Shown here: one piece after another, positions 17,731 to 33,354 of the stretch | Position numbering within the stretch: position 1 is the first letter of the stretch | How the letters are laid out: each line of letters opens with the position of its first letter | Assembly: GCA_050015175.1 (NCBI GenBank) | Contig: JBEKBX010000002.1 | Coordinates: forward strand, 118,614-182,613 | Direction: 5' to 3' | Origin: Acidimicrobiales bacterium | Lineage (GTDB): Bacteria > Actinomycetota > Acidimicrobiia > Acidimicrobiales > Bog-793 | Length of the DNA stretch: 64,000 bases | Program-made: the position numbers and the translations under genes | Notes under the pieces: generated by a model | Databases searched by the model: none | What the model was told of the DNA's origin: nothing | The model's input: the letters and a program-made list of their open reading frames with translations, nothing else

Positions 17731-19101
17731 ATGGCCATTTCATCGGTGTACCCGGCGACGGGCGAGACTCTCAAGACTTTCGAGCCTTACGACGAGGCGG
17801 AGGTGGAGCGAAGGCTCGCCCTTGCAGACAGCGCTTTTCGCGCCTACCGCCGGACTAGTTTCGACGAGCGCGCAAGGCTCGTGCGTGCGATGGCGGACGT
17901 GCTCGAGGCGGACCAGGCGACGATCGCCGAGATGATGACCCTCGAGATGGGAAAGCCCGTCGTCCAGGCCCGTAGCGAGGTGACCAAGTGTGTGGGCGTG
18001 CTGCGCTACTACGCCGAGCACGCCGCGGCCATGCTCGCCGACGAGCCCGTTGCCGGCACGGCGGCCAAGAGAGGCTCATACATCAAGTACCAGCCGGTCG
18101 GCCCGGTTCTGGCCGTGATGCCTTGGAACTTCCCGCTCTGGCAGGTCATCAGGTTCGCCGCCCCGGCGTTCATGGTGGGCAACGTCGCTTTGCTGAAGCA
18201 CGCCTCCAACGTGCCCCAGACGGCGCTCATCATCGAGGACGCGGCTCGTCGGGCGGGCTTCCCAGAAGGTGTCTTCCAGACCCTCCTCATCGGCGGTGAC
18301 CGTGTGCAGCCGATCTTGGAGGACGACCGGGTCGCCGCTGCCACTTTGACCGGCAGCGAGGGCGCCGGTCGCTCGGTCGCGTCCATCGCCGGCAACGTGA
18401 TCAAGAAGACGGTGCTCGAGCTCGGTGGCGCCGACCCGTTCATCGTGATGCCGTCGGCCGACCTGGACCGGGCGATCGAGGTCGGCGTGTGGGCTCGTGT
18501 CCAGAACAACGGTCAGAGCTGCATCGCGGCCAAGCGCTTCATCGTGCACGAGTCGATCGCCGATGAGTACTTCGAGCGTTACGCAGAGGCGATGTCCAAG
18601 CTCGTCGTAGGCGACCCCCTCGACGAGGCGACCCAGGTCGGTCCACTTGCCACCGCGCAAGGGCGCGACGAAGTGAACGAGCAGATCCAAGACGCGTTGT
18701 CCAAGGGTGCCAAGGCCATCTGCGGCGGTGGGACGACGGACGGCCCGGGATGGTTCGTCCAGCCGACGGCCCTTACCGAGCTCACGCCGGACATGCGTGT
18801 CTACCGCGACGAGGTCTTCGGGCCCGTGGCGTCGTTGTTCCGGGTGGGCGACATCGACGAGGCGATCGCGCTCGCCAACGACACGAGCTTCGGCCTCAGC
18901 TCGAGCGTCTGGACCGAGGACCCGGTCGAGCAGGCGCGTTTCGCCGAGGATCTCGAGTCGGGCATGGTCTACGTCAATGCCATGACGATCTCGTATTTCG
19001 ACCTCCCCTTCGGCGGTGTCAAGCGCTCCGGTTACGGCCGGGAGCTCTCACCAGCAGGCATCCGGGAGTTCACCAACATAAAGACCGTCTTCAGCGACTG
19101 A
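17731..19101 (+). CDS. NAD(P)-dependent succinate-semialdehyde dehydrogenase-like aldehyde dehydrogenase
   Basis: Track ORF trimmed to the ATG at 17731 (456 aa; MAISSVYPATGETLKTFEPY). It has the ALDH motifs PWNFP, ELGG and NNGQSCIAAKR. Confidence 0.8.
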   Translation: MAISSVYPATGETLKTFEPYDEAEVERRLALADSAFRAYRRTSFDERARLVRAMADVLEADQATIAEMMTLEMGKPVVQARSEVTKCVGVLRYYAEHAAAMLADEPVAGTAAKRGSYIKYQPVGPVLAVMPWNFPLWQVIRFAAPAFMVGNVALLKHASNVPQTALIIEDAARRAGFPEGVFQTLLIGGDRVQPILEDDRVAAATLTGSEGAGRSVASIAGNVIKKTVLELGGADPFIVMPSADLDRAIEVGVWARVQNNGQSCIAAKRFIVHESIADEYFERYAEAMSKLVVGDPLDEATQVGPLATAQGRDEVNEQIQDALSKGAKAICGGGTTDGPGWFVQPTALTELTPDMRVYRDEVFGPVASLFRVGDIDEAIALANDTSFGLSSSVWTEDPVEQARFAEDLESGMVYVNAMTISYFDLPFGGVKRSGYGRELSPAGIREFTNIKTVFSD

Positions 19102-19126
19102 GCTGCGACTCCGGCCGCCCGGCGCG

Positions 19127-19150
19127 GTGCCGGGCGCGCCCGGCACTTTT
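19127..19150 (+). terminator. Rho-independent terminator after the aldehyde dehydrogenase gene
   Basis: GTGCCGGGCG/CGCCCGGCAC GC-rich palindrome directly followed by TTTT, 26 nt after the stop. Confidence 0.6.
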
Positions 19151-19257
19151 CCTGGTATGCCCGAGCGGCTTCCGGTGCAGGCGGCGACGCGTCCGAAGCG
19201 CTCGTGGCTCTCGTCCCACCTGAAGCCGCCACAATCGCCCGGCTCACAGAGACGGCA

Positions 19258-19303
19258 ATCCCCACGCGGGATCGGCGTGCTGCGAGCCGCCCCGCGTGGG
19301 GAT
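19258..19303 (-). terminator. Hairpin downstream of the SBP gene (candidate terminator)
   Basis: 13-bp arms ATCCCCACGCGGG / CCCGCGTGGGGAT with a 20-nt loop, about 25 nt past the SBP stop. There is no clear U-tract. Confidence 0.35.
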
Positions 19304-19327
19304 CGTGCTGTCAGATCAGGGTTGGGT

Positions 19328-21049
19328 TCAGCCGACGGATGCGTTCCAGAGGAAGAACTGGCTGAGGGCCGTCGGGTAGACGCCCGTCACGTTCTTCCGG
19401 GTCGCAGCCAGGTAGTTGTAGAAGTAGGGGTAGATGATCGGCGTCTCGTCGAGCAGCAGGAGCTCTATCTGCTTGGCGACGCTCCTCTGGCTGGGAAGGT
19501 TGGTCGCAGCAACGTACTCCTGGGCCAGTTTGTCGTAGGCGGGGTCGTTGAAGCGGGCGGCGTTCCAGGCGCCGGCGCCTGTCGCTTTGTTGAAGGTCAT
19601 CAACGGTGCGTTGAGGAACAGGTTCGGCGTCGACCGGTTGCCGTAGTCCACCATGCTCATCTCGCCGTCGAGCCAGTCCGAGGTTCCGTACACGGCGGAG
19701 CCGTAGTACTTGTCCGGCTGCTCGATCGTGAGGCTGATGTCGACCCCGATCTCCTTGGCCCAGGTCTTGATGAACTGTGCCAGTTCCGGCATCTCCTGGC
19801 GCTGCTCGGTGATGAGCGGCGTGCTGAAGCCCCTGGCGTAGCCGGCCTTAGCGAGCAGCTGCTTGGCCATCGCGATGTTCTGGGCGCGCTGGGGAACCGC
19901 CGGCGGGCCGACCGTTGCCGGGAAGCAAGGGGCAAACGGGCTGTCGTTGCCGATGTCGGCGTAACCCTTGAACAGCGAGCTCACGAGCTGGGGACGGTTG
20001 AGCGTGAGAGCGATCGCCTGGCGGACCAGGTTGCTCTTGAACGGACCGGTGTCGCAACGCATCGAGAGCTCGCGGTGCCCCGAGCCCTTCAGCTTGATGA
20101 TGTTGTACGCGCCGGTCAACAGCTGTGGGCTCGTCGAGACGAAGAACTGGTCCAGACAGTCGATCTCGTTGGCCACGAGAGCGTTCGCCATCGGTTCCTC
20201 GGCGGCGTAGAAGGTCCACTGCACTTCGCTCGAAATCGCCGGTTTCCCCCAGTAGTACGGGTTGCGGACGAAGGTCGCTCCCACGTTCGTGGTGTAGCTC
20301 TGCATCATGTAATGCCCCGTACCGACCCACTGCGATGGGTAGTTGGAGTAGTCGAAGCCGTTCGGGACCACGATCATGTTGTAGTTGTCGGACGAGACTG
20401 CATCGAGGAAGGCTCCGTCGGCGGTCTCGAGGTGGAAGGCGATCGTGCCGTCGTCCACCTTCACCACGCCATCGGGAACCAAAAGCCCGCCGAACACCGA
20501 GAGAGCGCTTCCGCCGCTCTTCGGGTTGCACTGGGTCTTGAAGCTGTAGACGACGTCGTCGACGGTCATGTCGTTGCCGTTGTTGTACTTGACGCCCTGG
20601 CGGATCTTGAAGGTCCAGACGTCTGCCTTGGCGTTGGGGGTCCAGCTCGTGGCAAGCCATGGCAAGTAACCGAGCGCCTGGTCCGCTTCCACGAGGAACT
20701 CACCGACGTTGCCGAGGAGCTCGAGGCCGCCCTCGTCGGCGATCGTGAGCGGGTTGATGGCGCCGGCCGGCGTGATGATGCCCGCCCTTATCGTGCCGCC
20801 CGACGCAGCCCGCGCGCGGGAGACCGCAGACGCCCGTGGCCGCACACCCGGCAGGCCCTTGGCCTCGAGAATGCCACCGAGGAGCGGCAGCGAGAGGCCG
20901 AATGCCGTGCCTTTCTTGAGGAAGTCCCTCCGGGACAGCCTCCCGGCGACGAACTCGTCGATGATGTGCTCTTGGATCGGGCCCCGACCACGTCGGAGGT
21001 TGTCGAGCCGTTCGTGATTGACTTCTCTACCGTTGTCGTTGACGTCCAT
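19328..21049 (-). CDS. ABC transporter substrate-binding protein, family 5 (peptide/nickel/opine type), Tat signal
   Basis: 573 aa with the twin-arginine signal SRRDFLKKGTAFGLSLPLLGG. The body length and composition are DppA/OppA-like. Confidence 0.85.
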   Translation of the reverse strand: MDVNDNGREVNHERLDNLRRGRGPIQEHIIDEFVAGRLSRRDFLKKGTAFGLSLPLLGGILEAKGLPGVRPRASAVSRARAASGGTIRAGIITPAGAINPLTIADEGGLELLGNVGEFLVEADQALGYLPWLATSWTPNAKADVWTFKIRQGVKYNNGNDMTVDDVVYSFKTQCNPKSGGSALSVFGGLLVPDGVVKVDDGTIAFHLETADGAFLDAVSSDNYNMIVVPNGFDYSNYPSQWVGTGHYMMQSYTTNVGATFVRNPYYWGKPAISSEVQWTFYAAEEPMANALVANEIDCLDQFFVSTSPQLLTGAYNIIKLKGSGHRELSMRCDTGPFKSNLVRQAIALTLNRPQLVSSLFKGYADIGNDSPFAPCFPATVGPPAVPQRAQNIAMAKQLLAKAGYARGFSTPLITEQRQEMPELAQFIKTWAKEIGVDISLTIEQPDKYYGSAVYGTSDWLDGEMSMVDYGNRSTPNLFLNAPLMTFNKATGAGAWNAARFNDPAYDKLAQEYVAATNLPSQRSVAKQIELLLLDETPIIYPYFYNYLAATRKNVTGVYPTALSQFFLWNASVG

Positions 21050-21080
21050 GCGCCAACCCCCTTTGTCGTCCCTCGCGCAA

Positions 21081-21104
21081 GCGAGTCTTGTCTAACATAC
21101 TGGA
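21081..21104. promoter_or_regulatory. Candidate operator (copy 1 of the shared CGAGTCTTGT motif) in the SBP/iclR divergent region
   Basis: CGAGTCTTGT (21081-21090) followed by GGAC 10 nt later. The identical 10-mer recurs at 22073-22082. Confidence 0.25.
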
Positions 21105-21242
21105 CAGACGTTCAGCTACCTGCTTCTGGTACGATACTCAGCCAGACGAGCACGCGCCAGAGTCGAGCGGCGCACCCAGAGCGTAGGCACTTGCAGGTGA
21201 TCCGAGCGCCCTTCTGTGCAGATGCGAGGAGAGGAGGCATCA

Positions 21243-22058
21243 GTGGAGAAGCTCGACATCCGCACGCCGTCGACCGCTCCCGCGGTCGTGACGGCGATTC
21301 GGGCTCTCGATGCCCTCACGAGCCTTCAGGGCTCCGCGACGCTCGACGAGCTCACTCGGGCGCTCGACGAGCCTCGAAGCTCGGTGCACCGGATTCTCAA
21401 CACTCTTGTCGAGAACGAGCTCCTGCAAAGGCAGGGGCAGCGAGGCGGCTACCGGATGGGGCCGAAGGTAATGAAGTGGGGCTCGACCTTCTTGCGGGCC
21501 GTCAACCTCATCGACGAGTTCCGTGTCGTCGCATCACCCATCGTGGCCCGCGTCAACGAGACGATGCAGCTGGCAGTCCTCGATTGGCCCGACGTCGTGT
21601 TCGTGGCGTACCTGGACTCGAAGCGCCCCGTCAGGCTTGCCACCTATGTCGGCCGCCGACTCCCGGCGCACGCAACAGCCGCGGGCAAAGTGCTGCTCGC
21701 GTTCTCCGGTACCTGCGTTGTCGACCGGTATCGCGACTACGAGATGCAGAAGCTGACACCGAGGACGGTGACGTCGGTTGAAGAGTTCGAGCGTCAGCTC
21801 ATGAGGGTTCGGCGTCGAGGCTGGGCCGAGGCGAGCCAGGAAGCCTCGGAGAACCTGACGTGTCTCGCCGCTCCGGTTCACGGCCACGATGGCCGGGTCG
21901 TGGCTGCGATGACTTTCTGTGTGCCAGAACCCTCGCTGAAACTGGCATGTCGACAGGAGCTCTCGCGTGAGCTCCTTGACGGGTGCAGCGAGCTGTCCCG
22001 CCAGATCGGCGCGGACGACCCTTGCCGTTCCTCCGCAGTGGCTCAAAGCCGCGCGTGA
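21243..22058 (+). CDS. IclR-family transcriptional regulator
   Basis: Winged HTH (LDELTRALDEPRSSVHRILNTLVENELLQR) plus an IclR effector domain. GTG 21243 behind GGAGAGGAGG is preferred over ATG 21216. Confidence 0.85.
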   Translation: MEKLDIRTPSTAPAVVTAIRALDALTSLQGSATLDELTRALDEPRSSVHRILNTLVENELLQRQGQRGGYRMGPKVMKWGSTFLRAVNLIDEFRVVASPIVARVNETMQLAVLDWPDVVFVAYLDSKRPVRLATYVGRRLPAHATAAGKVLLAFSGTCVVDRYRDYEMQKLTPRTVTSVEEFERQLMRVRRRGWAEASQEASENLTCLAAPVHGHDGRVVAAMTFCVPEPSLKLACRQELSRELLDGCSELSRQIGADDPCRSSAVAQSRA

Positions 22059-22072
22059 CCAAGCCGCCGCGC

Positions 22073-22094
22073 CGAGTCTTGTTATGGTCGGGAC
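22073..22094. promoter_or_regulatory. Candidate operator (copy 2 of CGAGTCTTGT) upstream of the ADH gene
   Basis: CGAGTCTTGT at 22073-22082 followed by GGAC 8 nt later, within the 219-nt iclR-adh intergenic region. Confidence 0.25.
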
Positions 22095-22277
22095 TGTTCC
22101 GCGCAGCGCTCGGTGCCGACGCGACTGTCAGCCAAGTGACACCATTTATCGCCTCGCCGCAGCAGTGTTGTGTTGGGAAGCTGCGGATTCGACCGGTCAA
22201 GGGGTCGATGGTTACACTCCGCTAGAGAACCGTGTGGATAGACATCCAGCCGGTGAGACATCATGGAGGTGCCTTAC

Positions 22278-23405
22278 GTGAGCACTGCTATCGAGACACT
22301 CGCGGCTGTACTCGAAACGCCGGGCAAGGACTTCGTCGTTGAGAAGGTGCAGCTGGCGGCACCAGGTCCGACGGAGGTCCTGGTTCGCATAGAAGCGAGC
22401 GGTGTGTGTCACAGCGACTGGAACGCCGCGTCGGGCGCTTCGGCGACGCCGACCCCGGTGGTGCTCGGTCACGAGGGCGCCGGCGTGGTGGAAGCTGTCG
22501 GCGCCGCCGTCACGCGGCTATCCCTCGGTGACAAAGTCGTGCTGTCGTGGTTGCCGACCTGTGGGATTTGCCCCGCCTGCTTGAGGGGGGACCTCTCGTT
22601 GTGTGCCAGCGCCGGGAGCGAGATGAGCCGGGGATGCCTGCCGAGTGGCGAGACTCGCCTGTCGAGGAACTCCTCGCCCATCTACCACTACGCGTATCTG
22701 TCCACCTTCGCCCGTCACGCCGTCGTAGACGAACGGTCCTGCGTCGTGCTCCCCGTCGATGCCGATCTCGAGGCTGCCTGTCTCGTCGGTTGTGCCGTGA
22801 CGACCGGAGTCGGCGCCGTCTTCAACAAGGCGAAGATCGAGCCGGGTTCGTCCGTCATCGTCTTCGGATGTGGCGGAGTGGGCCTCTCTGCCCTCATGGC
22901 GGCCCGGTTCATGGGTGCCGGGACGATCATCGCCGTCGATCCGGTTGCCTCAAAACGCGACCTCGCCACCGAGCTCGGTGCAACGGCAACCCTCGACGGG
23001 AGGGACGCCAATCTCGTCGAGCAGCTGCGCGAGTTGTGCGGGGGAGGCGCCGATTACGCCTTCGAGGCGGCCGGGTTGCCATCGTTGGCCGCGATCGCTT
23101 TTGACGCCATACGCCCAGGCGGCATGGTCGTGCTGGTCGGCGTGCCCGCCGACGGCGAGCTGGTCTCCTTCCCCGGCAACGTGCTCGTGCGCTCGGAGAA
23201 GATCGTGACCGGAACGTTCTACGGTTCGGCGCGCCCCCCGCTCGACATGCCGTTGATCATGCGCCTGTACGCAGAAGGCAGGTTCCCGCTCGACCGTTTC
23301 ATCACCGAGCGGTACCCGCTCGAGCAGATAAACGAGGCCTTTGCCGCGATGCTCGAGGGCCGGGTCGTGCGTGCCGTTCTCAAGCCGTGGGAAGGAGGCG
23401 CTTGA
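22278..23405 (+). CDS. Zn-dependent alcohol dehydrogenase, class III-like
   Basis: GVCHSDW, VLGHEGAGVVE, the structural-Zn Cys cluster CGICPACLRGDLSLC, and the Rossmann motif VFGCGGVG. GTG 22278 behind GGAGG is preferred over ATG 22263. Confidence 0.85.
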   Translation: MSTAIETLAAVLETPGKDFVVEKVQLAAPGPTEVLVRIEASGVCHSDWNAASGASATPTPVVLGHEGAGVVEAVGAAVTRLSLGDKVVLSWLPTCGICPACLRGDLSLCASAGSEMSRGCLPSGETRLSRNSSPIYHYAYLSTFARHAVVDERSCVVLPVDADLEAACLVGCAVTTGVGAVFNKAKIEPGSSVIVFGCGGVGLSALMAARFMGAGTIIAVDPVASKRDLATELGATATLDGRDANLVEQLRELCGGGADYAFEAAGLPSLAAIAFDAIRPGGMVVLVGVPADGELVSFPGNVLVRSEKIVTGTFYGSARPPLDMPLIMRLYAEGRFPLDRFITERYPLEQINEAFAAMLEGRVVRAVLKPWEGGA

Positions 23406-23466
23406 TCATCGGGACGCGCCCTTCGTCGCGATCGCACAACCCGGCGTGCCGGCCGTGCCGCCCACG

Positions 23467-23778
23467 ATGTTCGTGAACAAGGCGGCGCTCACAGGGCCGG
23501 CACACGGGAACATGACGTGGGGCCCCGTCCAGGGAGTTGCGCAATGTGTCGGCGAGGCGCTCGAACGAGCGCTTATCGACAGCGGCGATGTCGACAACCT
23601 CGTCTTGACTGCGACTGTGTGGGTCAACTCGAATGCCGACGATGAAGCAGAGGTCTTCTGTAACAATCAGGTCGCCACGCTCGAAGCACTGCGCAAAGGT
23701 GCGCACGGGCTCCCCGCGGCGTCTGAGTGCGTCAGTGCCGCGCGATCACCGTTCAACCCCTTGTTCAGGCCGGCTTGA
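23467..23778 (+). CDS. Hypothetical small protein (weak call)
   Basis: 103 aa from the ATG at 23467. Third-codon positions are G/C-biased in this frame and the sequence looks protein-like (QCVGEALERALIDSGDVDNLVLTATVWVNSNADDEAEVF). I recognise no family, and a competing antisense ORF exists (23380..23706). Confidence 0.3.
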   Translation: MFVNKAALTGPAHGNMTWGPVQGVAQCVGEALERALIDSGDVDNLVLTATVWVNSNADDEAEVFCNNQVATLEALRKGAHGLPAASECVSAARSPFNPLFRPA

Positions 23779-23962
23779 GGGTCGCCCCGGCCGATCCCAG
23801 AGGCAGAGCGATGACCGGGCGGCCTGAGGGTCAGGAGTCCCCGACGGGTTGCGACTCCATTGAGGCAGCAGTCAACGGCCATCGTCGTCCGTGTGCGTCA
23901 AGCCGAGGGGAAAGCGACTCAGGCAGAACACAAGGAGTCAGGAAGGAACAGGCGGTAGCGAT

Positions 23963-24739
23963 ATGAAGATCAGCGAGTTCTCGATGGACTTGTTCTCACT
24001 GAAGGGCAGGACCGCCATCGTGACGGGAGGCAACACCGGCCTCGGTCAGGCCTTTGCACTGGCCCTCGCCAAGGCGGGAGCAAACGTCTTCATCCCGTCC
24101 GTCATGGACGACGGCGGTGAGACACGCCGGCTTGTCGAGGCCGAGGGGCAGAAGGCCGAGATCCTCACCATCGACATCACCGGGGACGGCGCTCCGAAGG
24201 CGGTCGTCGACGGCTGTGCTGCGAGCTTTGGAACCGTGGACATCGTGGTGAACTCCGCCGGAATCTGCAATATCGCATCGGTCGACAACTTCGGCCGCAG
24301 CGAGTGGGATCCGATGATCGCTCTCAATCTGACGGCTGCCTTCGAGCTCAGCTACGAGGCGTCCAAGCTCATGGTGGCGCAACGCTCGGGCAAGATCATC
24401 AACATCGCCTCGCTGTTCTCTTTTCTCGGTGGCCAGTGGTCGCCGGCCTATGCCGCCACCAAGCACGGGCTCGCTGGTTTCACCAAGGCGTACTGCGATG
24501 AGCTGGCCCAGTACAACGTGCAGGTGAACGCGATCGCGCCGGGCTACTACGCGACGGCAATCACCGAGACCACCCGGTCCAACCCGGAGACCAACCAGCG
24601 GGTGCTCGACCACATTCCAGCCGGCCGTTGGGGCGATGCAGCCGATCTGATGGGCGCCACGGTCTTCTTGGCAAGTCGGGCCTCTGACTACGTGAACGGT
24701 CACGTTCTGGTCGTCGACGGCGGCTACCTCGTCCGGTGA
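23963..24739 (+). CDS. Short-chain dehydrogenase, KduD (2-dehydro-3-deoxy-D-gluconate 5-dehydrogenase)-like
   Basis: Trimmed to the ATG at 23963 behind GGAAGGA. It has TGGNTGLGQ, NSAG, YAATKHG, IPAGRWG and ASDYVNGHVLVVDGGYLVR, collinear with E. coli KduD as I recall it. Confidence 0.85.
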   Translation: MKISEFSMDLFSLKGRTAIVTGGNTGLGQAFALALAKAGANVFIPSVMDDGGETRRLVEAEGQKAEILTIDITGDGAPKAVVDGCAASFGTVDIVVNSAGICNIASVDNFGRSEWDPMIALNLTAAFELSYEASKLMVAQRSGKIINIASLFSFLGGQWSPAYAATKHGLAGFTKAYCDELAQYNVQVNAIAPGYYATAITETTRSNPETNQRVLDHIPAGRWGDAADLMGATVFLASRASDYVNGHVLVVDGGYLVR

Positions 24740-24778
24740 CAGCACCGGGGACAACGTTCGACGGAGGAGAATAGGTTC

Positions 24779-26239
24779 ATGGTGCAATCACGTTCGGATC
24801 TGGATCGCGAGGCGATCCGGCAAGGGCTGACCGAGATCGTCGGCCAGGACCAGGTATGCGTCGACGAAGACAAGCTGAAGGCGTCGAGTGTCGACAGGTT
24901 CAAGAAATACACGGCTGTCAACGGGATCTTCACCGGTCCCATCCCGGCCGCCGTCGTGTCGGTGACCTCGACCGAAGAGGTTGCGAAGGTCCTTCGTTTC
25001 GCGAACGACCATCTGGTCAACGTGGTACCGCGCACCGGGATCACCTCGACCGAAGGTGGGCTCGAGACGATAGTGGAGGACACGATCGTCGTTGACGGCT
25101 CGCCGATGAACAAGATCGTCCATATCGACCCGGTGAACATGATGGCCACGGCCCAGTGTGGCGTGTGTCTCGAGGTGCTGGAGGACGCCGTCCGGTTGCA
25201 GGGCCTCACGACGGGCCACTCACCTCAATCGAAGCCCTTGGCGCAGATGGGAGGCCTCACCGCCACCCGCTCGACCGGGCAGTTGTCGACGCTGTACGGC
25301 GGGATAGAGGACATGGTCGTCGGGCTCGAGGCCGTCTTCCCGGACGGCACTGTCTGCCGGGTAAAGAACGTGCCACGCAGGGCGGTGGGGCCCGACATCA
25401 GGCACATCATCATCGGCAACGAAGGTGCCCTGTGCTTCATCACCGAGGTCACGCTGAGGCTGTACCGCTACAGGCCGGAGAACAACCAGTACAGGGGATT
25501 CCTGGTCGACAACATCGACGACGGGATATCGGCGATCCGTGAGGTCGTGACCGACGGGTTCCGCCCATCGGTGTGTCGCGTGTACTCCGAAGAGGACGCT
25601 CACCAGCATTTCGCCGACTTCCACCAGGACAAGTGCGTCTTGATCTTCATCTGCGAAGGCCCGGAGGCGATCGTCGCCGCCACCGTTGCGGAGATCGACC
25701 GCGTAGTTGCCGGATACCACCACGAGGTCGTGGACCCCGAGCGGATCGCGCAGTGGTTCAGCAATCTGAACTGGGGCATGGACAAGATCATCGCCGAACA
25801 GGAGTGGATGCTCCGGGAGCACAACCTCGGCTACACGACCGAGATCTCTGCCAATTGGTCAGACATTGGTGCCATCTACAAGGACGCGATGCGCCGTATC
25901 CGCACCGAGTATCCCTACGCAGGCGACCTCACGATGCTGGGGGCGCACTCGTCGCACAGCTACCAGACCGGCACCAACCTGTACTTCGTCTACGACTACA
26001 ACATCGACTGCGAACCGACCGAAGAGATCACGAAGTACCACATTCCGATCAACGCGATCATCGTGGAGGAGGCCCTCAGACACCGGGGCTCAATGGTCCA
26101 CCATCACGGAATCGGGAAGTACCGGACCGACTGGACCGAGCAAGAGCACGGCAGCGCCTACTACATGTTGCGCACGCTCAAGCAAGCCTTCGACCCGAAC
26201 GGCGTCATGAACAAGGGCACGATCTTCAAGGCCCAGTGA
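24779..26239 (+). CDS. FAD-binding PCMH-type oxidoreductase (GlcD / alkyl-DHAP-synthase-like)
   Basis: 486 aa. The FAD_binding_4 pattern is PAAVVSVTSTEEVAKVLRFANDHLVNVVPRTGITSTEGG, with a C-terminal FAD-oxidase_C-like half. Confidence 0.85.
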   Translation: MVQSRSDLDREAIRQGLTEIVGQDQVCVDEDKLKASSVDRFKKYTAVNGIFTGPIPAAVVSVTSTEEVAKVLRFANDHLVNVVPRTGITSTEGGLETIVEDTIVVDGSPMNKIVHIDPVNMMATAQCGVCLEVLEDAVRLQGLTTGHSPQSKPLAQMGGLTATRSTGQLSTLYGGIEDMVVGLEAVFPDGTVCRVKNVPRRAVGPDIRHIIIGNEGALCFITEVTLRLYRYRPENNQYRGFLVDNIDDGISAIREVVTDGFRPSVCRVYSEEDAHQHFADFHQDKCVLIFICEGPEAIVAATVAEIDRVVAGYHHEVVDPERIAQWFSNLNWGMDKIIAEQEWMLREHNLGYTTEISANWSDIGAIYKDAMRRIRTEYPYAGDLTMLGAHSSHSYQTGTNLYFVYDYNIDCEPTEEITKYHIPINAIIVEEALRHRGSMVHHHGIGKYRTDWTEQEHGSAYYMLRTLKQAFDPNGVMNKGTIFKAQ

Positions 26240-26267
26240 ACCTCGTCCGCGGCCTTTGGAGGCAGGA

Positions 26268-27695
26268 GTGAAGCGCTACCTGATCGGCATAGACAACGGG
26301 TCCCAGAGCACGAAGGTGTCTGTGTTCGACGAGCGTGGCACCGTGGTGTGCGAGGGGCGCCAGGCCCTCCGGCCAAATGACACGCCGCAGCCCGGCGTGG
26401 TGGAACACCCGGACGACGATCTCTGGTTCTCCATTGGCGAGGCGAGCCGCCAGGCCATGGCGGCGTTCCCGGGGGATGTCGCGGACATAGTCGGCGTGGG
26501 CCTGTGCACGATCCGTTTCTGCAGGGCGCTCCTCAAGGCCGACGGGACATTGGCCACTCCGGTGATGAGCTGGATGGACCGAAGAGTTTCCCGGCCCTAT
26601 GAGCACATCGACCCGAACGTGCGCTATGTGACGACGTCGTCGGGGTACATCAGCCACAGGATGACCGGTGAGTTCAAGGACACTGCCGCCAACTACGCGG
26701 GTGTGTGGCCGTTCAACGCGGACCGCTGGGAGTGGTTGCGCGACGACGAGGGCTTCTCGGACTACCAGGTGCCGCGCCAGATGCTCTTCGAGTTGCTGAT
26801 GCCGGGTGAGGTGCTGGGCTGCGTGACGCCCGAGGCGTCTCGTCACACCGGGATCCCGGCGGGGCTGCCAGTTGTCGCGACTTCCAACGACAAGGCCGTC
26901 GAGGCCCTCGGGTGCGGCCTGCGCTCGCCCGACACTCTCCTCGTCTCGTTGGGCACGTACACCGCGAGCATGACGACAGGAGAGCGCAACATACCGGACG
27001 CCAAGAGCTTCTGGTCCAATTTCGCCTCCATTCCGCATCAGTACCTGTACGAGAGCTACGGCATCCGCAGGGGCATGTGGACGGTCAGTTGGTGGCGGGA
27101 CCTGCTCGGCGAGGAGGCGAGGTCGGCAGCGGAGCGACAGGGACTGGGGGTCGAGCAGTATCTCGACCTCGAGGCAGAGAAGGTGCCACCCGGCTCGAAC
27201 GGCCTCATGGTGGTCCTCGACTGGCTCGCGCCGACGGAAGCCCCGTTCAAGAAAGGCTCGATCGTCGGCTTCGACGTCCGGCACGACCGGTTCCACATCT
27301 ACAGGGCCATACTCGAGGGAATCGCCCTGACGATCTACCGGTGTGGCACGGCGATGGGGGAAGAGACGGGGGAGATCTACAACCGGATAGTCGTCTCGGG
27401 CGGGGGATCGAACTCGGACGTGTTCATGCACATCTTCGCCGACGTCTTCGGGGTCCCGGCTGTTCGCAGCAAGATGAACAACGCCGCGGGGCTGGGCTCA
27501 GCGATCTGCGCCGCTGTCGGGCAGGGCGTTTACGGCTCGTGGGACGAAGCCATCGACAACATGGTGTCCTGGGAGCCGCCCTTCGCCCCGAACGCCAAGA
27601 ATCATGACCTGTACTTGCGGATGGCGGCTGTCTACGACGAGGTCCCGAGCCTCACGGACAAGATCTTCGAACGGTCCTACGAGATCTTCGGCTGA
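26268..27695 (+). CDS. FGGY-family carbohydrate kinase
   Basis: N-terminal YLIGIDNGSQSTKVSVFD plus FGGY N and C domains. GTG 26268 behind GGAGGCAGGA is preferred over TTG 26256. The 3-prime end overlaps the convergent ABC ATPase gene by 19 nt. Confidence 0.85.
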   Translation: MKRYLIGIDNGSQSTKVSVFDERGTVVCEGRQALRPNDTPQPGVVEHPDDDLWFSIGEASRQAMAAFPGDVADIVGVGLCTIRFCRALLKADGTLATPVMSWMDRRVSRPYEHIDPNVRYVTTSSGYISHRMTGEFKDTAANYAGVWPFNADRWEWLRDDEGFSDYQVPRQMLFELLMPGEVLGCVTPEASRHTGIPAGLPVVATSNDKAVEALGCGLRSPDTLLVSLGTYTASMTTGERNIPDAKSFWSNFASIPHQYLYESYGIRRGMWTVSWWRDLLGEEARSAAERQGLGVEQYLDLEAEKVPPGSNGLMVVLDWLAPTEAPFKKGSIVGFDVRHDRFHIYRAILEGIALTIYRCGTAMGEETGEIYNRIVVSGGGSNSDVFMHIFADVFGVPAVRSKMNNAAGLGSAICAAVGQGVYGSWDEAIDNMVSWEPPFAPNAKNHDLYLRMAAVYDEVPSLTDKIFERSYEIFG

Positions 27696-29761
27696 CCGGC
27701 TGTCTGGTCGGCGACCTCCGTTTGCGAGCTTCTCAGTTCGCCGATGGGGATGTGGCAACGCATCATGTGACCCGGCTCGACCTCGACGAGCGCGGGCTCG
27801 GTGGACTCGCACAACCCGTTCGCGAGGCGTCGCGGACAGCGCGTGTGGAACACGCACCCCGACGGCGAGTGCGCGGCGCTCGGGATCTCGCCCGTGAGCC
27901 GGATCCGCTCGCGGGACGTCCCGTCCAGGCTCGGCACCGCCGAGAGCAACGACTCGGTGTAAGGGTGATGGGGACCAGAGAAGACCGTCTCCGCCGACCC
28001 GTACTCCATCACGCGGCCCAGATAGAGCACCGCGATGCTGTCAGAGAGGTAGCGCACGACACCAAGATCGTGCGAGATGAAGACATAGGTGACTCGCTCA
28101 CGGCTTTGCAGGTCGGCGAGGAGATTGAGGATTGCCGCTTGCACAGAGACGTCGAGCGCCGAGGTCGGCTCGTCGCACACGAGGACCCGCGGAGACCCCG
28201 CGAAAGCGCGGGCGATGGCGACCCGTTGCTTGAGCCCCCCGGAGAGCTGGTAGGGGCGCAAGGGCAGGTGGCGCTCCTCCATGCGCACGGAGCGGACGAT
28301 CTCGAGAAGTCGTTGCTCGCACGCTTGGCCGGAGAGCCCGGCCAGCTTCTTGAGCGCCCTCGTGACGATGTGGCGCACGCTGTGGCGTCGGTTCAGCGCG
28401 GAGTCCGGGTTCTGGAAGATGATCTGCATCGCCTGCAACTGCTTGCGGTCGCGCTTGGTGCACTCGGGAGCGAGCGGCGAGCCTTCCAACTGGATGACGG
28501 ATCCCTCGTCGGGCACGCTCAGGCCGAGCAGCACGCGCGCGAGCGTCGTCTTGCCGGACCCCGACTCGCCGACGAGCCCGAGGGTCTCGCCTGGCTTGAG
28601 GTCGAGGTCGACACCCACGACGGCACGCACGTGCTCGCCGCGGACGTGGAACGTCTTCGACACGCCGCGCAAGCGGATCACCGGCTCTTCGCCCGGGTCG
28701 GGGATCTGCAGCTTGACGTCCTCCGGGGTTGCCCTGGGCAGCTCGGGCGCTCGTTCGTGGTAGTGACAGCGAGAGGTGCGTCCTGCGGCCACGTCGTACA
28801 TCGGCGGCGTCTCCTCGAGGCAACGCTGGTCCGCGATCGCACAACGCTTGGCGAAGATGCAGCCGACCTGGATCTCGCCCGGCCCGGGAAGGAAGCCCGG
28901 GATGGTGTCGAGGCGGCCGTGGTCCTTGCGCTGGCCGCGACGAGGCACGCAGCGCAGCAGCCCTACGGTGTAGGGGTGCCTGGGGTCGTCGAAGACCTCC
29001 CGTGCAGGACCCTGTTCTACGATCTCACCGGCGTACATGACCCCGACCCGGTCGCACATCTTCGCGATCACCGCGAGGTTGTGGCTGATGAAGAGCACTG
29101 AGGTCTGGAACTGTTGGCGCAGCGACGACACGAGGTCGAGGACCTCGGCCTCCACCGTGGCGTCGAGCGCGGTCGTGGGCTCGTCGAGTATGAGCAGCGA
29201 GGGCTCGGAGGCGAGCGCCATGGCGATCATGACTCGTTGCAGCATCCCGCCCGACAGCTGATGCGGGTAGGAGCGCAACACGCGCCCAGGATCCGCGATC
29301 TGCACGACGCGCAGCAGCTCCTCGGCGCGCGCCAAGGCTTCGGGCCTCCTTGTTCCGGCGATCTCGTACACCTCGGCCACCTGACGTCCCACCCGGAGCG
29401 ACGGGTTGAGGGCACGGCCGGGCTCTTGGTACACCATCGAGATCGTGCGAGCGCGGAACTTGCGCAGGGCGCGTTTGTCCATCTCGGAGGGGTCCTGCCC
29501 GTTGACCACGACCGTGCCCCCGCTGAGTCGACCGTTGCGCGGCAGGTAACGAGTGATGGCGAGGGCGGTGGTGGACTTGCCGCAGCCCGACTCGCCGACG
29601 AGCCCGAACGACTCCTGCCGTCCGATGCTGAACGAGACGTCGCGGAGAGCCAGTCGATCCTTGCCCCGCACTCGGTAGGCCACGTCGAGGTGGCTCACCT
29701 CGAGGGTCATGGGTGGTCTCTCCACCGTGGCGGCCTGGTCGGACGACGTTGTAAGGGTCAT
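27677..29761 (-). CDS. ABC transporter ATP-binding protein, fused double NBD (DppD-DppF type)
   Basis: Two Walker A sites ([18 protein letters not shown]) and two signatures ([16 protein letters not shown]). The ATG at 29761 overlaps the permease stop (ATGA); the ATG at 29710 is an alternative start. Confidence 0.9.
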
Positions 29762-30690
29762 TGGATCAGCACCGTCTCGATCGCGTCGCCGATGAGGTTT
29801 ATCGCGATGATGAGCGAAGCGATCGCGAGCGCCGGGAAGAGCGTCTCCCACCAGTAGCCGGCGGCGAGGTAATTGGAGTTGACGGCGATGTCGGCGCCCC
29901 AGTCCGGCGTGGGCAGCTGCACGCCGAAGCCGAGGAACGACAGCGTTGCGATCGTGAAGATGGCGTAGCCCAACCGGACGGTGAACTCAACGAGTATCGG
30001 GCCGAGCACGTTCGGGAGGATCTCGACGTACATGACGTGCAGGACGCTCTCGTCGCGTAACCGGGCCGCCGCGAGGTAGTCGAGCTCACGCTCCTGCAGG
30101 ACTGCGGTACGCACCGTCCTCGCGATGATCAGGGAGAAGACGAAGCCGATGACGACGATCAGAGTGAGCGTGCTGGGGCCGACTGCGACGACGAAGAGAA
30201 AGGCCACGATGACGATCGGAAGCGAAAGCGCCGCGTCCACGATCCTGCCGACGATCATGTCGAAGGCACCACGGAGGTAGCCCTGTGCAAGGCCGATCGT
30301 CGTTCCGACAACCGTGCCCAAGAGCGTGGCGAGAGGGGCGATCTCGAGGATGTCGCGGGCGCCGACGATCACACGGGACAACACGTCCTCGCCGACGTCG
30401 TTCGTCCCGAACCAGTGGGCGGCCGACGGCGCGAGCTGGGTGCTCAGAATGTTCGCCCCCGTCGCGTTGTAGGGAGCGAACGAGGGCCCGAAGATGGCGC
30501 AGACGATCCACCAGAGGAGGATGAGCGCGCCGATGATGAACGTCTTTGAGCGGACGAGCTGGTGAAGCTGCTCGCGGCGGACCTGCACGACGGACACATC
30601 GAGTGCGCCTGCGGCGCCGGCGGACGCGTCGGCCAGGGTTGCAGCCCCTCCGGCCACGGTAGGCGCGAGTGGGTCGATGGCCGCCGTCAT
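29758..30690 (-). CDS. ABC transporter permease (DppC-like)
   Basis: Track ORF trimmed to the ATG at 30690 (310 aa). It is polytopic with a BPD_transp_1-type layout. ATGA overlaps at both ends. Confidence 0.9.
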   Translation of the reverse strand: MTAAIDPLAPTVAGGAATLADASAGAAGALDVSVVQVRREQLHQLVRSKTFIIGALILLWWIVCAIFGPSFAPYNATGANILSTQLAPSAAHWFGTNDVGEDVLSRVIVGARDILEIAPLATLLGTVVGTTIGLAQGYLRGAFDMIVGRIVDAALSLPIVIVAFLFVVAVGPSTLTLIVVIGFVFSLIIARTVRTAVLQERELDYLAAARLRDESVLHVMYVEILPNVLGPILVEFTVRLGYAIFTIATLSFLGFGVQLPTPDWGADIAVNSNYLAAGYWWETLFPALAIASLIIAINLIGDAIETVLIQ

Positions 30691-31640
30691 TCCGCGTTCC
30701 CCAGCCTGATCCGCGGGTTCAACACCGTGTAGAGGATGTCGGCGATGAGCGTCGCGGCGAGGTAGACGATGCCGATGAAGAGAACTCCCGCTTCGAGAGT
30801 CGGGAAGTCCTTGTCGTTGGCGGCGTTGATGATCAAGGTGCCGATACCCGGGTAGACGAAGAGCTTCTCGACCACGACGAGCCCGCCGATGAGGTAACCG
30901 GTCTGTGTAGCGATGACCGTGATGGTTGGAAGCAACGAGTTGCGAAGCACGTGCCGCCGGATCACCACCCATCGGGGCAGCCCCTTCAAGGTGGCTGTGC
31001 GGACGTAATCGGAGTCGAGCGCCTCGATCGTGCCGGCCCGGGCCATTCGGGCTATGTAGCCGAAGAGGATGAACACGAGCGGGATGGCAGGCAGGATCAG
31101 GTACTTCAGCTGGACGAAGAACGACGAGCCGGGTGGAGCGTTGGCCGAGACCGGCAACAGCTTGAAGCCGAGGGCGAACACGACGATCAGAACGACGCCG
31201 GAGACGAACTCGGGCACCGTCGAGAGAGAGAGGCTCGTCGTGCTGATCAGACGGTCCACGAAGCTCCCTCGGTTGAGCGCCGCGATGATCCCGCCGAGGA
31301 TGCTGAGGGGTACGACTATGACGAAGGCGAAGGCCGCGAGCTTGAGGGAGCGACCGATGTACGGGAAGATGAAGGAGCTGACCGGTGCCTGTTGCTGGTA
31401 GGAGGTCCCGAGGTTGCCGTGCAGGATACCGGTGGCCCAGCTCCAGTACTGAACGAGGAGCGGCCGGTCGACTCCGAGCTTGTGGTCGAGCGTGATCACA
31501 GCCTGTTGCGAGGCGAAGGGTCCGAGGATGGCTCTGCCTGCGTTACCGGGGAGCACCTGACCGGCGAAGAAGATGATCATGCTCAAGAGCACGAGCGTGA
31601 TCAACGCCAAGCCGACACGCTTCAACACGTACAGCGGCAA
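30687..31640 (-). CDS. ABC transporter permease (DppB-like)
   Basis: 317 aa with a TTG start behind GGGAGGAGGG. The N-terminus MPLYVLKRVGLALITLVLLSMIIF is typical of DppB/OppB. Confidence 0.9.
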   Translation of the reverse strand: MPLYVLKRVGLALITLVLLSMIIFFAGQVLPGNAGRAILGPFASQQAVITLDHKLGVDRPLLVQYWSWATGILHGNLGTSYQQQAPVSSFIFPYIGRSLKLAAFAFVIVVPLSILGGIIAALNRGSFVDRLISTTSLSLSTVPEFVSGVVLIVVFALGFKLLPVSANAPPGSSFFVQLKYLILPAIPLVFILFGYIARMARAGTIEALDSDYVRTATLKGLPRWVVIRRHVLRNSLLPTITVIATQTGYLIGGLVVVEKLFVYPGIGTLIINAANDKDFPTLEAGVLFIGIVYLAATLIADILYTVLNPRIRLGNAE

Positions 31641-31702
31641 CTGTGCCCTCCTCCCGTATCACATCCCGGCCTGGGCCAACACGGTCAAGTCGAGACTGGA
31701 GG

Positions 31703-31717
31703 TTAACCGGAGGTTAA
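31703..31717. promoter_or_regulatory. TTAAC-N5-GTTAA palindrome (T-N11-A type) embedded in the direct repeat GGAGGTTAA-CC-GGAGGTTAA
   Basis: Perfect 5-bp inverted arms in an otherwise GC-rich divergent intergenic region (31641-31980). A third GGTTAAC lies at 31860-31866. Confidence 0.3.
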
Positions 31718-31980
31718 TCAGAGCCAGAAGCTAGCAGGGCAACCGTCTATTCGCCTTTCGCGTAGGGTTCAGCGCTTGTTGCCCGGTTTCGGGCGGCACG
31801 GATCGAAGGACAGGCCTGCGAATCCGAGGAGCCGAGTCTTGGGCGGCGAAGGCCTCGACGGTTAACATGGCGAGCCATGCGCGCGGCCCGACGTCGACAC
31901 GATGCCCGCGCTCACGCCAACCCCGGCGGCAGCTCAAGCACGCGTCGCCGAGAACGGCGGTCACCTCGGTTGGCCACGAG

Positions 31981-33354
31981 ATGCCCGCAGTAGACCTCTC
32001 CATCCTCGGGCGGGTCGTCAACGGCGTCAGCGCGCCGGTTCGCGGCGAGATCCGCGTTGCCGGGGGTCGCATCGTCGAGGTGCGCGAAGGCGAGCCTGCT
32101 TCCCTGTCGGCCACAAGGCTGATCGACGTCGGAACTGCCTATCTGCTCCCCGGCGGGATCGACTGCCACGTCCATTCGGGCAGCACCACGGCCGAGGGGA
32201 TCCGGGCTCTCACCGCGGCGGCGGCGGCCGGCGGCGTGACCACCGTGATCGACATGCCCTACGACGTGGCAGCACCGGTCGTGAGCCCGGAGATATTGGC
32301 CGCCAAACGCGCCAAGGTCCTGGCTGAAGCGCTTGTCGACGTGGCCCTCTTGGGCACGGTGCGCCCCGGGACCGGTGGCGTCGACGTCGGTCCGCTCGTC
32401 GAGGCCGGCGCGGTGGGCTTCAAACTCTCGCTGTTCGGCACTGACCCCCACCGGTTCCCGCGCATTCCAGACGACCAGTTCCTCGAAGTCCTCGCCGCGA
32501 TCCACGAGCACGGCAGCGTCGCGTGCGTGCACGCCGAGAACGAGGAGATAATCAAGCCCCTTCTGGCACGTGCCCGTGAATCGGGCGATGCCTCCCCGAT
32601 TGACCACTGCCGCTCGCGCCCGCCGGTGAGCGAGACCCAGGCGGTGCTGACGGCGCTCGAGTACGCCAGGGAGACAAAGGCTCCTCTCCACTTGTGCCAC
32701 CTGAGCCTCGCCCGCTCGGTGGACCTCGCCCGTTCGTATGCCGCAGAGGGCCTGCGGGTGAGCACGGAGACGTGCCCGCACTACCTGTGCTTCTCCGAGG
32801 ACGACATGGAGCGCCAACGTGGTCGCCTGAAGATAAACCCGCCCTTGCGCCCGGCCACCGAGGTGGCCCGGCTCTGGGAGCGTCTGTCGGGAGGGGGGAT
32901 CGACGTGGTTGCCTCGGACCATGCGCCCTGGCCACTGTCGGAAAAGACGCGACCGGCGATCTTCGACAATCACTCCGGGGCCCCGGGCACCGAGACACTT
33001 GTCACGGTGCTGGCTGCCGGGCTCCTCGACCGGGGCCAGGACCTCAACACGCTCCCGCACCTCGTTGCAGCGGCGCCCGCGCGTATCTTCGGGATCTCGC
33101 ACGTGAAAGGCTCTCTCATGCCCGGCATGGACGCCGACATCATGGCCTTCGACCCGGGCAGGCCATTCACCCTCGATGAGCGCCAACTGCACTCGAACGC
33201 GGGCTGGAGCCCTTATCACGGGATGGCTTTTCCCGGGCGGGTCATCCTAACGGTCTCGCGTGGAGAGGTGGTCTGGGACGGGTCGCAGCTCCACGGATCG
33301 CCGGGTCGCGGCCGTGTCGTGGAGCGTCCCCGGGGGGCACCACAAGGTGGCTGA
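31981..33354 (+). CDS. Cyclic amidohydrolase (hydantoinase/allantoinase/dihydroorotase family); candidate hydantoin-5-propionate hydrolase
   Basis: Trimmed to the ATG at 31981 (457 aa). It has LLPGGIDCHVH, GFKLSLFG, VHAENEE and VASDHAPW. Confidence 0.85.
   Translation: MPAVDLSILGRVVNGVSAPVRGEIRVAGGRIVEVREGEPASLSATRLIDVGTAYLLPGGIDCHVHSGSTTAEGIRALTAAAAAGGVTTVIDMPYDVAAPVVSPEILAAKRAKVLAEALVDVALLGTVRPGTGGVDVGPLVEAGAVGFKLSLFGTDPHRFPRIPDDQFLEVLAAIHEHGSVACVHAENEEIIKPLLARARESGDASPIDHCRSRPPVSETQAVLTALEYARETKAPLHLCHLSLARSVDLARSYAAEGLRVSTETCPHYLCFSEDDMERQRGRLKINPPLRPATEVARLWERLSGGGIDVVASDHAPWPLSEKTRPAIFDNHSGAPGTETLVTVLAAGLLDRGQDLNTLPHLVAAAPARIFGISHVKGSLMPGMDADIMAFDPGRPFTLDERQLHSNAGWSPYHGMAFPGRVILTVSRGEVVWDGSQLHGSPGRGRVVERPRGAPQGG

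Follow-up and report, generated by a model that had tools for sequence, protein, structure and literature searches.

What does an ABC importer of the Dpp/Opp class bring into the cell when its genes are divided around those of a regulator, an alcohol dehydrogenase (ADH), a short-chain dehydrogenase/reductase (SDR), an FAD-linked enzyme and an FGGY-family kinase? The question is posed by an island within a 64,000-nt stretch of an Acidimicrobiales genome (assembly GCA_050015175.1, contig JBEKBX010000002.1, positions 118,614 to 182,613; this whole stretch is called the window below, and coordinates are those within it). An earlier note, made from the sequence alone, placed the island at 19328-31640 and took it for a single regulon importing something other than a peptide (a glycosylated, polyol-like or opine-like compound), to be processed by dehydrogenation, oxidation and phosphorylation.

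The answer favoured here, tentatively, is that peat and soil Acidimicrobiales use this island to break down a small molecule taken up from outside, not a peptide and probably containing nitrogen, and that the importer is coupled to an enzyme module. The island is a variant of an already known ygc-type module, whose pairing with a Dpp-type importer was seen only in Acidimicrobiales.

The enzyme core and its orthologues

The SDR, FAD-enzyme and kinase genes (the trio, below) are adjacent (23963-27695), and their products align over the full length with E. coli YgcW (72% identity), YgcU (60%) and YgcE (50%), respectively. Their order pointed to the uncharacterised E. coli K-12 ygc cluster, and protein comparison confirmed the match. 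The enzyme core equals a block of E. coli K-12 genes to which none of the literature searched assigns a function. At about 70% identity, homologues of the FAD enzyme occur in Streptomyces, Saccharopolyspora, Lentzea, Actinomycetaceae and one Acidobacteria contig, and the order SDR-FAD enzyme-kinase recurs in all four of the loci opened for them. A scan of one genome per GTDB species yielded 80 loci around YgcU-like genes, which were characterised by a tblastn matrix and by all-against-all clustering of their open reading frames (ORFs). The trio was detected in nearly all of the 84 loci examined, and its order in the window is that of about 80 other loci. It is conserved across Actinomycetota, one Acidobacteria contig and E. 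coli; the module as a whole is spread over many Actinomycetota, that contig and enterobacteria, at 50-80% identity.

The packaging of the trio varies. In type A (about 22 loci, in Streptomyces, Saccharopolyspora, Curtobacterium and Brachybacterium, plus E. coli), it follows genes for a GlpP-like antiterminator and a YqcE-like transporter of the major facilitator superfamily (MFS). In type B (about 30 loci, in Microbacteriaceae, Lentzea and Leucobacter), an IclR-family gene is divergent from a ten-gene operon encoding a permease, an ATPase, a second permease, an OsmF/YehZ-like substrate-binding protein (SBP) of the OpuAC type, a formaldehyde-activating enzyme (Fae), a dehydrogenase resembling 3-hydroxyisobutyrate dehydrogenase (HIBADH), an aldehyde dehydrogenase (AldDH) resembling succinate-semialdehyde dehydrogenase (SSADH), and the trio. 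Type D is that of the window, with a Dpp-type importer, and was found only in Acidimicrobiales. One Actinomycetaceae locus has a BCCT transporter beside the GlpP gene. Several trio loci of other taxa have no recognised transporter nearby, and loci of other taxa with the trio alone have no recurrent neighbours that could name a substrate; nor did clustering reveal any isomerase, aldolase or glycosidase recurring near the trio.

Three different transporter classes thus adjoin the trio in different lineages, and this is the main argument for coupling: because three unrelated importer classes are joined to the same enzymes, the importer beside the trio presumably feeds it. A Dpp-type importer in this position is plausible, since the module elsewhere has an adjacent MFS or YehZ/OpuAC-type importer; in Dpp-type genomes no other importer adjoins the trio, while most other lineages have an adjacent one. 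The YehZ/OpuAC-type and Dpp-type SBPs also offer handles for ligand screening.

The flavoenzyme gives the best indication of chemistry. It has the two-domain fold of the VAO/PCMH family, and its nearest solved structure is alkyl-dihydroxyacetone phosphate synthase (AGPS, EC 2.5.1.26). AGPS enzymes are also its best solved relatives by sequence (phmmer E = 1.7e-45), with glycolate oxidase and D-lactate dehydrogenases far behind. In a HMMER alignment, R267 corresponds to AGPS Arg419, Y402 to Tyr578, and H441-H443 to the His615-617 HHH loop; all five aligned residues are invariant in 84 of 84 YgcU-like sequences. At the same sites E. coli GlcD has Glu, Phe-His and Gly-Glu-His, so that Y-F...HHH in the YgcU-like proteins stands against F-H...GEH. 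The His/His/Glu positions of GlcD form the metal site of 2-hydroxy-acid dehydrogenases, in the C-terminal domain; Tyr578, Arg419 and the HHH loop are catalytic in AGPS. The PDB holds Tyr578Phe and Arg419His mutants of AGPS (entries 4BCA and 4BC7), which are among the fold matches. An AlphaFold model of the flavoenzyme (pLDDT 79) resembles AGPS most closely: AGPS provided all of the top 35 Foldseek matches (TM 0.72-0.81), with D-lactate dehydrogenases at only a small distance behind (TM 0.74-0.76). As GlcD itself the protein was rejected: TIGR00387 scores 129 against a cut-off of 568, and the GlcD motif residues are absent.

Judged by these alignments, the YgcU family has an AGPS-type catalytic signature, not that of 2-hydroxy-acid dehydrogenases. 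The flavoenzyme is called AGPS-like here, and not AGPS, because identity is about 25% (approximately 24-26%) and the N-terminal ~190 residues are missing (486 aa against 658, with the alignment beginning near AGPS residue 200). AGPS works on a dihydroxyacetone phosphate (DHAP) skeleton substituted at C1, after which an SDR-type alkyl-DHAP reductase acts in ether-lipid synthesis. The signature therefore suggests a substituted DHAP or glycerol C3 unit as part of the substrate, and would narrow the chemistry accordingly.

The Dpp-type importer and its two gene orders

The importer has a typical Dpp/Opp architecture, with an SBP_bac_5 binding protein, two BPD_transp_1 permeases, and ATPases with an oligo_HPY tail; the JGI annotation reads "peptide/nickel transport system". 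As DppA or OppA the SBP was rejected (61.5 against a cut-off of 1005, and 72.5 against 947), the NikA and CntA models are also below cut-off, and no peptide, nickel or opine equivalog was reached in NCBIfam. In a MAFFT alignment N471 (Ala in most homologues) falls in the column of DppA Asp408 and OppA Asp419, the Asp that binds the peptide N-terminus; a near-invariant D468 lies 3 residues upstream, beside a 3-residue gap. Given the equivalog scores, an ordinary peptide system is unlikely, and the label "peptide/nickel ABC transporter" is probably misleading here.

The SBP has a twin-arginine motif, SRRDFLK, at residues 39-45, with R40 and R41 invariant in 35 homologues. The 38-residue extension preceding this signal is also conserved in the 35, down to 64% identity, with H12, L18, R19, G21, G23, H28, I30, D31 and E32 invariant. 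This is unusual conservation for the n-region of a signal peptide, and the extension might be a chaperone-binding or regulatory segment.

A synteny search of the kind the earlier note proposed found the window's gene order in six GTDB species representatives and several metagenome contigs. It also found a second order, in the loci L016, L094 and L095: FGGY> AldDH< DppB> DppC> DppDF> ADH< Fae< SBP> (LysR<) SDR> FADox>, where FADox is the flavoenzyme. Since the window's order is repeated in relatives, and a rearranged one exists as well, the arrangement is more than chance. SBPs of the second order are 69-71% identical to that of the window; Fae here precedes ADH, and this ADH is only 52% identical to the window's. 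A neighbor-joining tree of 90 SBPs groups all of the trio-linked ones in one clade, which lies among lyase-linked clades; because this one clade includes both gene orders, the SBP-trio linkage arose once and has survived rearrangement. In L094 there is no lyase, urocanase or ergothioneine-utilisation (ert) gene within 10 kb of the cluster; in L095 a histidine-ammonia-lyase (HAL)-type gene lies 1 kb downstream of the FAD-enzyme gene. In two of these loci an ammonium-transporter (Amt) gene is convergent to the FAD-enzyme end of the cluster (L016, 12045-13277; L094, 14687-15919).

The earlier suggestion that a non-peptide is imported and fed to the enzymes is thus strengthened by the low DppA and OppA scores, the conserved catabolic module, and the single SBP clade with two gene orders. 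It is weakened by the lyase linkage of the wider importer family, which is taken up below.

Gene calls, the Fae remnant and transcription units

All ten genes named earlier were found where they had been placed (Table 1), by ORF listing and by Pfam and NCBIfam scans. Gene content, strands and the Tat-signal SBP gene divergent from iclR were all as described, as was the tail-to-tail overlap of the kinase and ATPase genes (19 nt, 27677-27695).

Table 1. Features of the island and its immediate surroundings (window coordinates).
Feature	Position	Strand	Evidence or remark
Aldehyde dehydrogenase, NADP-succinate-semialdehyde-dehydrogenase (SSADH) type, 456 aa	17731-19101	+	PF00171; NF006915 732.7 vs cut-off 730
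Family-5 SBP with Tat signal SRRDFLK and 38-residue N-terminal extension	19328-21049	-	PF00496
Imperfect dyad GTCTTGTCTAACATACTGGACAGAC, SBP-iclR divergent region, candidate operator/promoter element	21085-21109		
IclR-family regulator, 271 aa	21243-22058	+	PF09339 + PF01614
Perfect palindrome TGGATAGACATCCA, candidate repressor site	22235-22248		30 nt upstream of ADH start
Zn-dependent ADH, NDMA (N,N-dimethyl-4-nitrosoaniline)-dependent/class III-like	22278-23405	+	PF08240 + PF00107
Fae-like pseudogene, 115-nt internal deletion at 23413/23414	23402-23778	+	PF08714, profile positions 42-153 only
SDR, YgcW orthologue	23963-24739	+	72% identity over 256 aa
FAD-linked enzyme, YgcU orthologue	24779-26239	+	PF01565 + PF02913
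FGGY-family kinase, YgcE orthologue	26268-27695	+	50% identity over 476 aa
Fused DppD/DppF-type double ATPase	27677-29761	-	Two ABC_tran + two oligo_HPY domains
DppC-type permease, 310 aa	29758-30690	-	PF12911 + PF00528; orthologue 311 aa
DppB-type permease	30687-31640	-	PF19300 + PF00528
Five-gene ergothioneine-utilisation-like cluster, divergent from dppB	31867-38931	+	Pfam, NCBIfam

Starts were refined by comparison with orthologues and inspection of ribosome-binding sites. The likely iclR start is the GTG at 21243, not 21216 (ribosome-binding site and 271-aa orthologue); other likely starts are GTG for ADH (22278) and the kinase (26268), ATG for the SDR (23963), and positions 29761 for dppDF and 30690 for dppC. 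The dppC ATG overlaps the dppB stop codon, and the dppDF start that of dppC; because of these 4-nt overlaps, dppB, dppC and dppDF are read as one translationally coupled operon. G+C content is about 67% in the window and slightly lower, 62.6-65%, in the enzyme part of the island. The SSADH-type AldDH gene probably belongs to the island, although outside 19328-31640: it adjoins the cluster both in the window's order and in the rearranged one, and the island is better delimited as 17731-31640.

Several more specific family assignments were tried and rejected. For the ADH, TIGR03989 scores 322 against a cut-off of 440, and TIGR02818 284 against 544. The SDR has KduD and gluconate 5-dehydrogenase as its nearest models, but fails as KduD (335.8 against 369, and 274.8 against 338.85). 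The names class III-like and KduD-like given earlier are thus right as to the nearest models, though both proteins are under the cut-offs and the SDR is a YgcW orthologue. As XylB, LsrK or GlpK, the kinase is in each case far below the curated cut-off. The regulator has HTH_IclR and IclR_C domains, and scores below cut-off for the equivalogs BhcR, PcaR and KdgR.

What had been listed as a possible small ORF (23341/23401-23778) does exist, but is a Fae homologue (PF08714) broken by a deletion. Its closest relatives are 164-aa proteins from Acidimicrobiales metagenome-assembled genomes, at 76-79% identity, which begin MLIGESF...GDGxNAAH; the intact orthologues P0002, P0004 and P0005 align end to end with the Fae structure 1Y5Y (residues 8-166). 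Against three orthologous loci, a DNA alignment places a clean 115-nt deletion (about 38 codons) in the window's gene, so that the native start, a TTG at 23402 that overlaps the stop codon of the ADH gene, is no longer in frame. The window copy falls short of a full-length Fae (about 160-170 aa, with an N-terminal GDGxxxAH segment). The deletion is real, and not an assembly error, since the same truncation (protein P0001, 98% identical) is found on three other contigs. Decay in the related locus L012 is independent: there the 3' part is lost, and the N-terminal GVNAAHVNV segment (at about 8950-9020) is kept.

The ADH-Fae pair, at 64-68% identity, is also present in lyase-type Dpp loci that lack the trio (L093, 14365-21121; L092, 1-157; also L116, L131, L153 and L171), and so forms a bridge between two gene sets that differ in other respects. 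L093 has the series MFS>ADH>Fae>MR_MLE>HAL-like lyase>CDO_I+rhodanese. A literature search found no functional study linking Fae with mycothiol.

The idea of one regulon is not supported: the island has at least three transcription units, and the candidate operators before SBP/iclR, ADH and dppB differ in sequence. The SBP-iclR intergenic region has a mean identity of 78% among six relatives, and its 25-nt dyad is nearly invariant. The palindrome before the ADH gene has its only exact match in the 64 kb at that site, is kept in 6/6 aligned relatives, and follows a conserved block resembling a promoter. Little is conserved in the spacer between Fae and SDR (58%), as would be expected if transcription reads through from the ADH promoter. 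Ahead of dppB are conserved blocks peculiar to that region, which has neither the SBP-iclR dyad nor the ADH palindrome. The sequences CCTGC..TTCTGG in the iclR-side and dppB-side promoter regions are loosely alike, and only suggestive.

Two candidates for a shared signal were rejected. The 9-mer CGAGTCTTG has exactly three copies in the 64 kb (21082, 22073 and 31833, all on the plus strand), each in an intergenic region of the island, but only the SBP-iclR copy (21082) is conserved in relatives; and the generic dyad TGTC-N6-10-GACA is not above chance as a common operator. A scan with the sigma-70 consensus gave no match, terminator-like sites are below expectation, and Rfam has no match between 17000 and 40500. 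Upstream of dppB (31698-31717), an 11-nt tandem duplication, GGAGGTTAACC/GGAGGTTAATC, is present as a single copy in six relatives; it sits in a conserved block, ..GGAGGCTAATCAGAGCC.GAAGCTAGCAGG...

The five-gene cluster beyond dppB (called ert-like below) encodes an ErtD-like amidohydrolase, a (thio)urocanate hydratase, a DUF917/thiohydantoin-desulfurase-like protein, an ErtE carbamoylase and a HAL-like lyase; the best scores of these genes are with the ergothioneine-utilisation models. ErtE (530 against a cut-off of 520) and hutU (651 against 375) pass in NCBIfam; thiourocanate hydratase (748/930), thiohydantoin desulfurase (385/440), ErtD (421/600) and hutH, the model for the lyase (359/539), are below cut-off. 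The cluster is possibly a second client of the importer, or else a separate unit. It is followed by an MFS gene (39005-40279, minus strand) 50% identical to the one that heads the MFS-ADH-Fae operon of L093. Upstream of the island are two fusion genes, both syntenic in relatives: one with MoeA and PBP_like domains (12441-14567, minus strand), and one joining aminodeoxychorismate synthase (Chorismate_bind) to a PabC-like Aminotran_4 domain (15501-17648, plus strand).

Possible chemistry, rival readings and known systems

Because OpuAC-type and BCCT transporters, HAL-like lyases, Fae and an ammonium transporter recur as neighbours, a nitrogenous substrate, of the kinds typical of soil and peat, is hinted at; many related contigs are labelled peat, bog or palsa. 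The observations agree better with a nitrogenous substrate bearing a glycerol-like C3 unit than with a sugar. "Sugar-like", as the enzymes had been described, is thus too loose, given the AGPS-type flavoenzyme and these neighbours; of the three compound classes proposed, opine-like comes closest.

On the reading favoured here, a branch of the importer would have been recruited from a family serving HAL-like pathways, and would now supply the enzyme block. The kinase would phosphorylate the free primary hydroxyl of a glycerol-like C3 unit (X-CH2-CHOH-CH2OH to its phosphate), and the SDR would oxidise the secondary alcohol beside it to a ketone, so that a 1-substituted dihydroxyacetone phosphate (X-CH2-CO-CH2-OP) results. 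The AGPS-like flavoenzyme would then act at C1, displacing or cleaving the substituent to yield DHAP and X-H or X-OH. ADH and AldDH might oxidise the released moiety, as could the HIBADH-like enzyme elsewhere, and an intact Fae might handle a formaldehyde-type aldehyde; IclR may act as repressor of this operon by way of the palindrome that precedes the ADH gene. The absence of a recurrent aldolase or isomerase near the trio fits the release of DHAP, and the GlpP-like antiterminator of type A fits a glycerol/DHAP scheme, because GlpP responds to glycerol-3-phosphate.

Taken to its full extent, this would make the trio an unrecognised catabolic use of AGPS-type flavin chemistry, with the ether-lipid pathway run backwards to obtain DHAP from 1-substituted glycerols, which is decidedly unlikely. 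The differing importers (MFS, OpuAC-type and Dpp-type) and accessory genes (ADH, AldDH, HIBADH-like, Fae and lyases) would then reflect different substituents. For the Acidimicrobiales clusters and those of the betaine type, a possible substrate would be an amino-acid betaine in the form of its glyceryl ether or amine, such as the deacylated head group (glyceryl-trimethylhomoserine) of diacylglyceryl-trimethylhomoserine (DGTS), a betaine lipid abundant in mosses, algae and fungi. A literature search found no functional study of DGTS head-group catabolism, or of AGPS with an FGGY kinase. If true, the scheme would supply a function for the E. coli y-gene block, and a new cleavage route for glycerol ether or amine conjugates.

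A number of findings weigh against the favoured reading. A full-text literature search gave no functional study of ygcU, ygcE, ygcW, yqcE, ygcS or ygcP. The E. coli cluster carries genes like those for electron-transfer flavoprotein (ETF) and ETF-quinone oxidoreductase (ETF-QO), which suggests that YgcU is a true dehydrogenase and not a non-redox enzyme in the manner of AGPS. The clade can evidently do without Fae, which has decayed both in the window and in L012; the iclR gene is absent from the L016 and L094 clusters; and with relatives aligned, no operator was common to the SBP/iclR, ADH and dppB upstream regions. The AlphaFold model of the SBP (pLDDT 57) is too poor for a fold search or for reading a ligand class. 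The most serious points concern the importer. SBP homologues are abundant in soil and peat metagenomes, and the wider family (54-68% identity, on dozens of soil contigs, more than 40) is operonic with HAL-like lyases and urocanase-like genes, without the trio. In L092, L093 and L096 (SBPs 65-67% identical to the window's), the order is DppB>DppC>DppDF>SBP>HAL-like lyase, beside urocanase-like, M20 and amidohydrolase genes and again without the trio; a metagenome scan added 80 loci, in which every SBP at or below 68% identity lacks the trio and most with enough flank carry HAL-like lyases. The permeases and ATPase of L093 are 76-79% identical to those of the window. Set against its dppBCDF-SBP operon, the window looks as though the IclR-to-kinase block had been inserted between the dppDF and SBP genes, in opposite orientation to them, and the ert-like cluster adjoins dppB on the other side. 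The importer may therefore serve the ert-like pathway instead of, or besides, the trio.

These points make up the strongest rival, which is doubtful but to be taken seriously: that the Dpp importer serves the adjoining lyase and ert-like genes, with a histidine-derived betaine or the like as substrate, and that the block from IclR through ADH, Fae and the trio is an independent inserted module without a dedicated importer. That this block owns a regulator and a conserved promoter and palindrome agrees with such independence, as do the several trio loci of other taxa with no recognised transporter nearby. On the other hand, L094 and L016 interleave the same importer clade with ADH, Fae, the trio and AldDH, and have no lyase, urocanase or ert gene within 10 kb; the trio-linked SBPs are monophyletic; the linkage outlived a rearrangement in which even the ADH is a divergent one; and the trio has an adjacent importer in most other lineages. 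Because of the lyase in L095 and the ADH-Fae pair in lyase-type loci, a combined model, with both enzyme sets acting on one compound or on related ones, is kept alive. Also unlikely is catabolism of a neutral polyol, keto-sugar or glycoside, with kinase and flavoenzyme acting like GlpK and GlpD or Brucella EryA and EryB, the SDR adjusting a second hydroxyl, and the Dpp importer co-opted. FGGY kinases mostly act on ketoses, glycerol and polyols, and the best models for this one are XylB and LsrK, though both are below cut-off; the nearest models of the SDR, the sugar-porter-type MFS (YgcS-like) and GlpP-like antiterminator homologue of the E. coli and Saccharopolyspora clusters, the ETF- and ETF-QO-like genes of E. 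coli, and the near-equal fold match to D-lactate dehydrogenases are all in keeping with it. Yet the YgcU family keeps the AGPS-specific Arg/Tyr/HHH set where GlcD differs, and the trio has no recurrent isomerase, aldolase or glycosidase in its neighbourhood. Its ABC partner is most often of the betaine type (OpuAC/YehZ), the Dpp partner comes from a lyase-linked family, and a pathway for a plain sugar would hardly be expected to include Fae, AldDH, ADH and lyases. That an ordinary di- or oligopeptide importer merely happens to lie beside unrelated oxidoreductase and kinase genes is highly improbable: the Dpp/Opp domain architecture and the JGI label would agree with it, while the peptide equivalog scores are all far below cut-off, the enzyme synteny is kept in two orders across many genomes, and relatives of the importer are operonic with lyases, not peptidases.

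The favoured reading, of an importer coupled to the enzyme module, can be set beside several known systems. The E. coli K-12 ygc cluster (ygcNO, ygcP, ygcQR, ygcS, ygcU, ygcW, yqcE and ygcE; b2766-b2776) has the orthologous trio, but the window has a Dpp-type importer, IclR, Zn-ADH, the Fae remnant and the SSADH-type AldDH in place of the other genes. The GlpP-like antiterminator (YgcP) and the YqcE/YgcS-type MFS proteins have no tblastn match in window-type loci, and the ETF/ETF-QO-like genes (ygcQR, ygcNO) none in any of the 88 non-E. coli loci. Type B, as in Microbacterium phyllosphaerae (L067: IclR< YehYXWZ-like ABC> Fae> HIBADH-like> AldDH> SDR> FADox> FGGY>), shares the trio with the window, and also an IclR-family gene divergent from an ABC importer, an AldDH, and a Fae that belongs to the same subtype, being 55-61% identical to the intact orthologue P0004. 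It differs in the class of importer (OpuAC/OsmF), in an AldDH of another subfamily (36-38% identity), in having the HIBADH-like gene and usually lacking the ADH, and in having all its genes on one strand, in a single ten-gene operon.

The lyase-linked Dpp importers (L092, L093, L096 and about 40 metagenome loci) resemble that of the window in their proteins (65-80% identical) and in adjoining HAL-like lyase and urocanase-like genes; unlike it, they lack the trio, have the SBP gene directly after dppDF, and have SBPs outside the trio-linked clade. The Agrobacterium binding proteins AccA and AgaA (cluster C, opine/agrocinopine) are a precedent for a Dpp/Opp-class importer of a non-peptide conjugate, and both turn up in the PDB search (E about 1e-18 to 1e-19), but this similarity is no better than that to peptide and nickel binders in the same list, and the window is without Moc or Acc enzymes. 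In Paracoccus, Gfa and class III ADH carry out glutathione-dependent formaldehyde activation and oxidation. A possible analogy is the translational coupling of an aldehyde-activating gene to one for a class III-like Zn-ADH, the ADH stop and Fae start overlapping in intact orthologues; Fae, however, is unrelated to Gfa, and its gene is inactivated in the window genome.

AGPS itself remains nearest to the flavoenzyme by sequence and by fold, with the Arg, Tyr and HHH residues kept. Apart from size and identity, the two differ in setting: the flavoenzyme is found in a soluble catabolic context, with importers and regulators, and the ETF genes of the E. coli cluster suggest net redox chemistry. 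By analogy with ether-lipid synthesis, the companion SDR and kinase would mirror, in reverse, alkyl-DHAP reductase and a step of the glycerol-kinase type.

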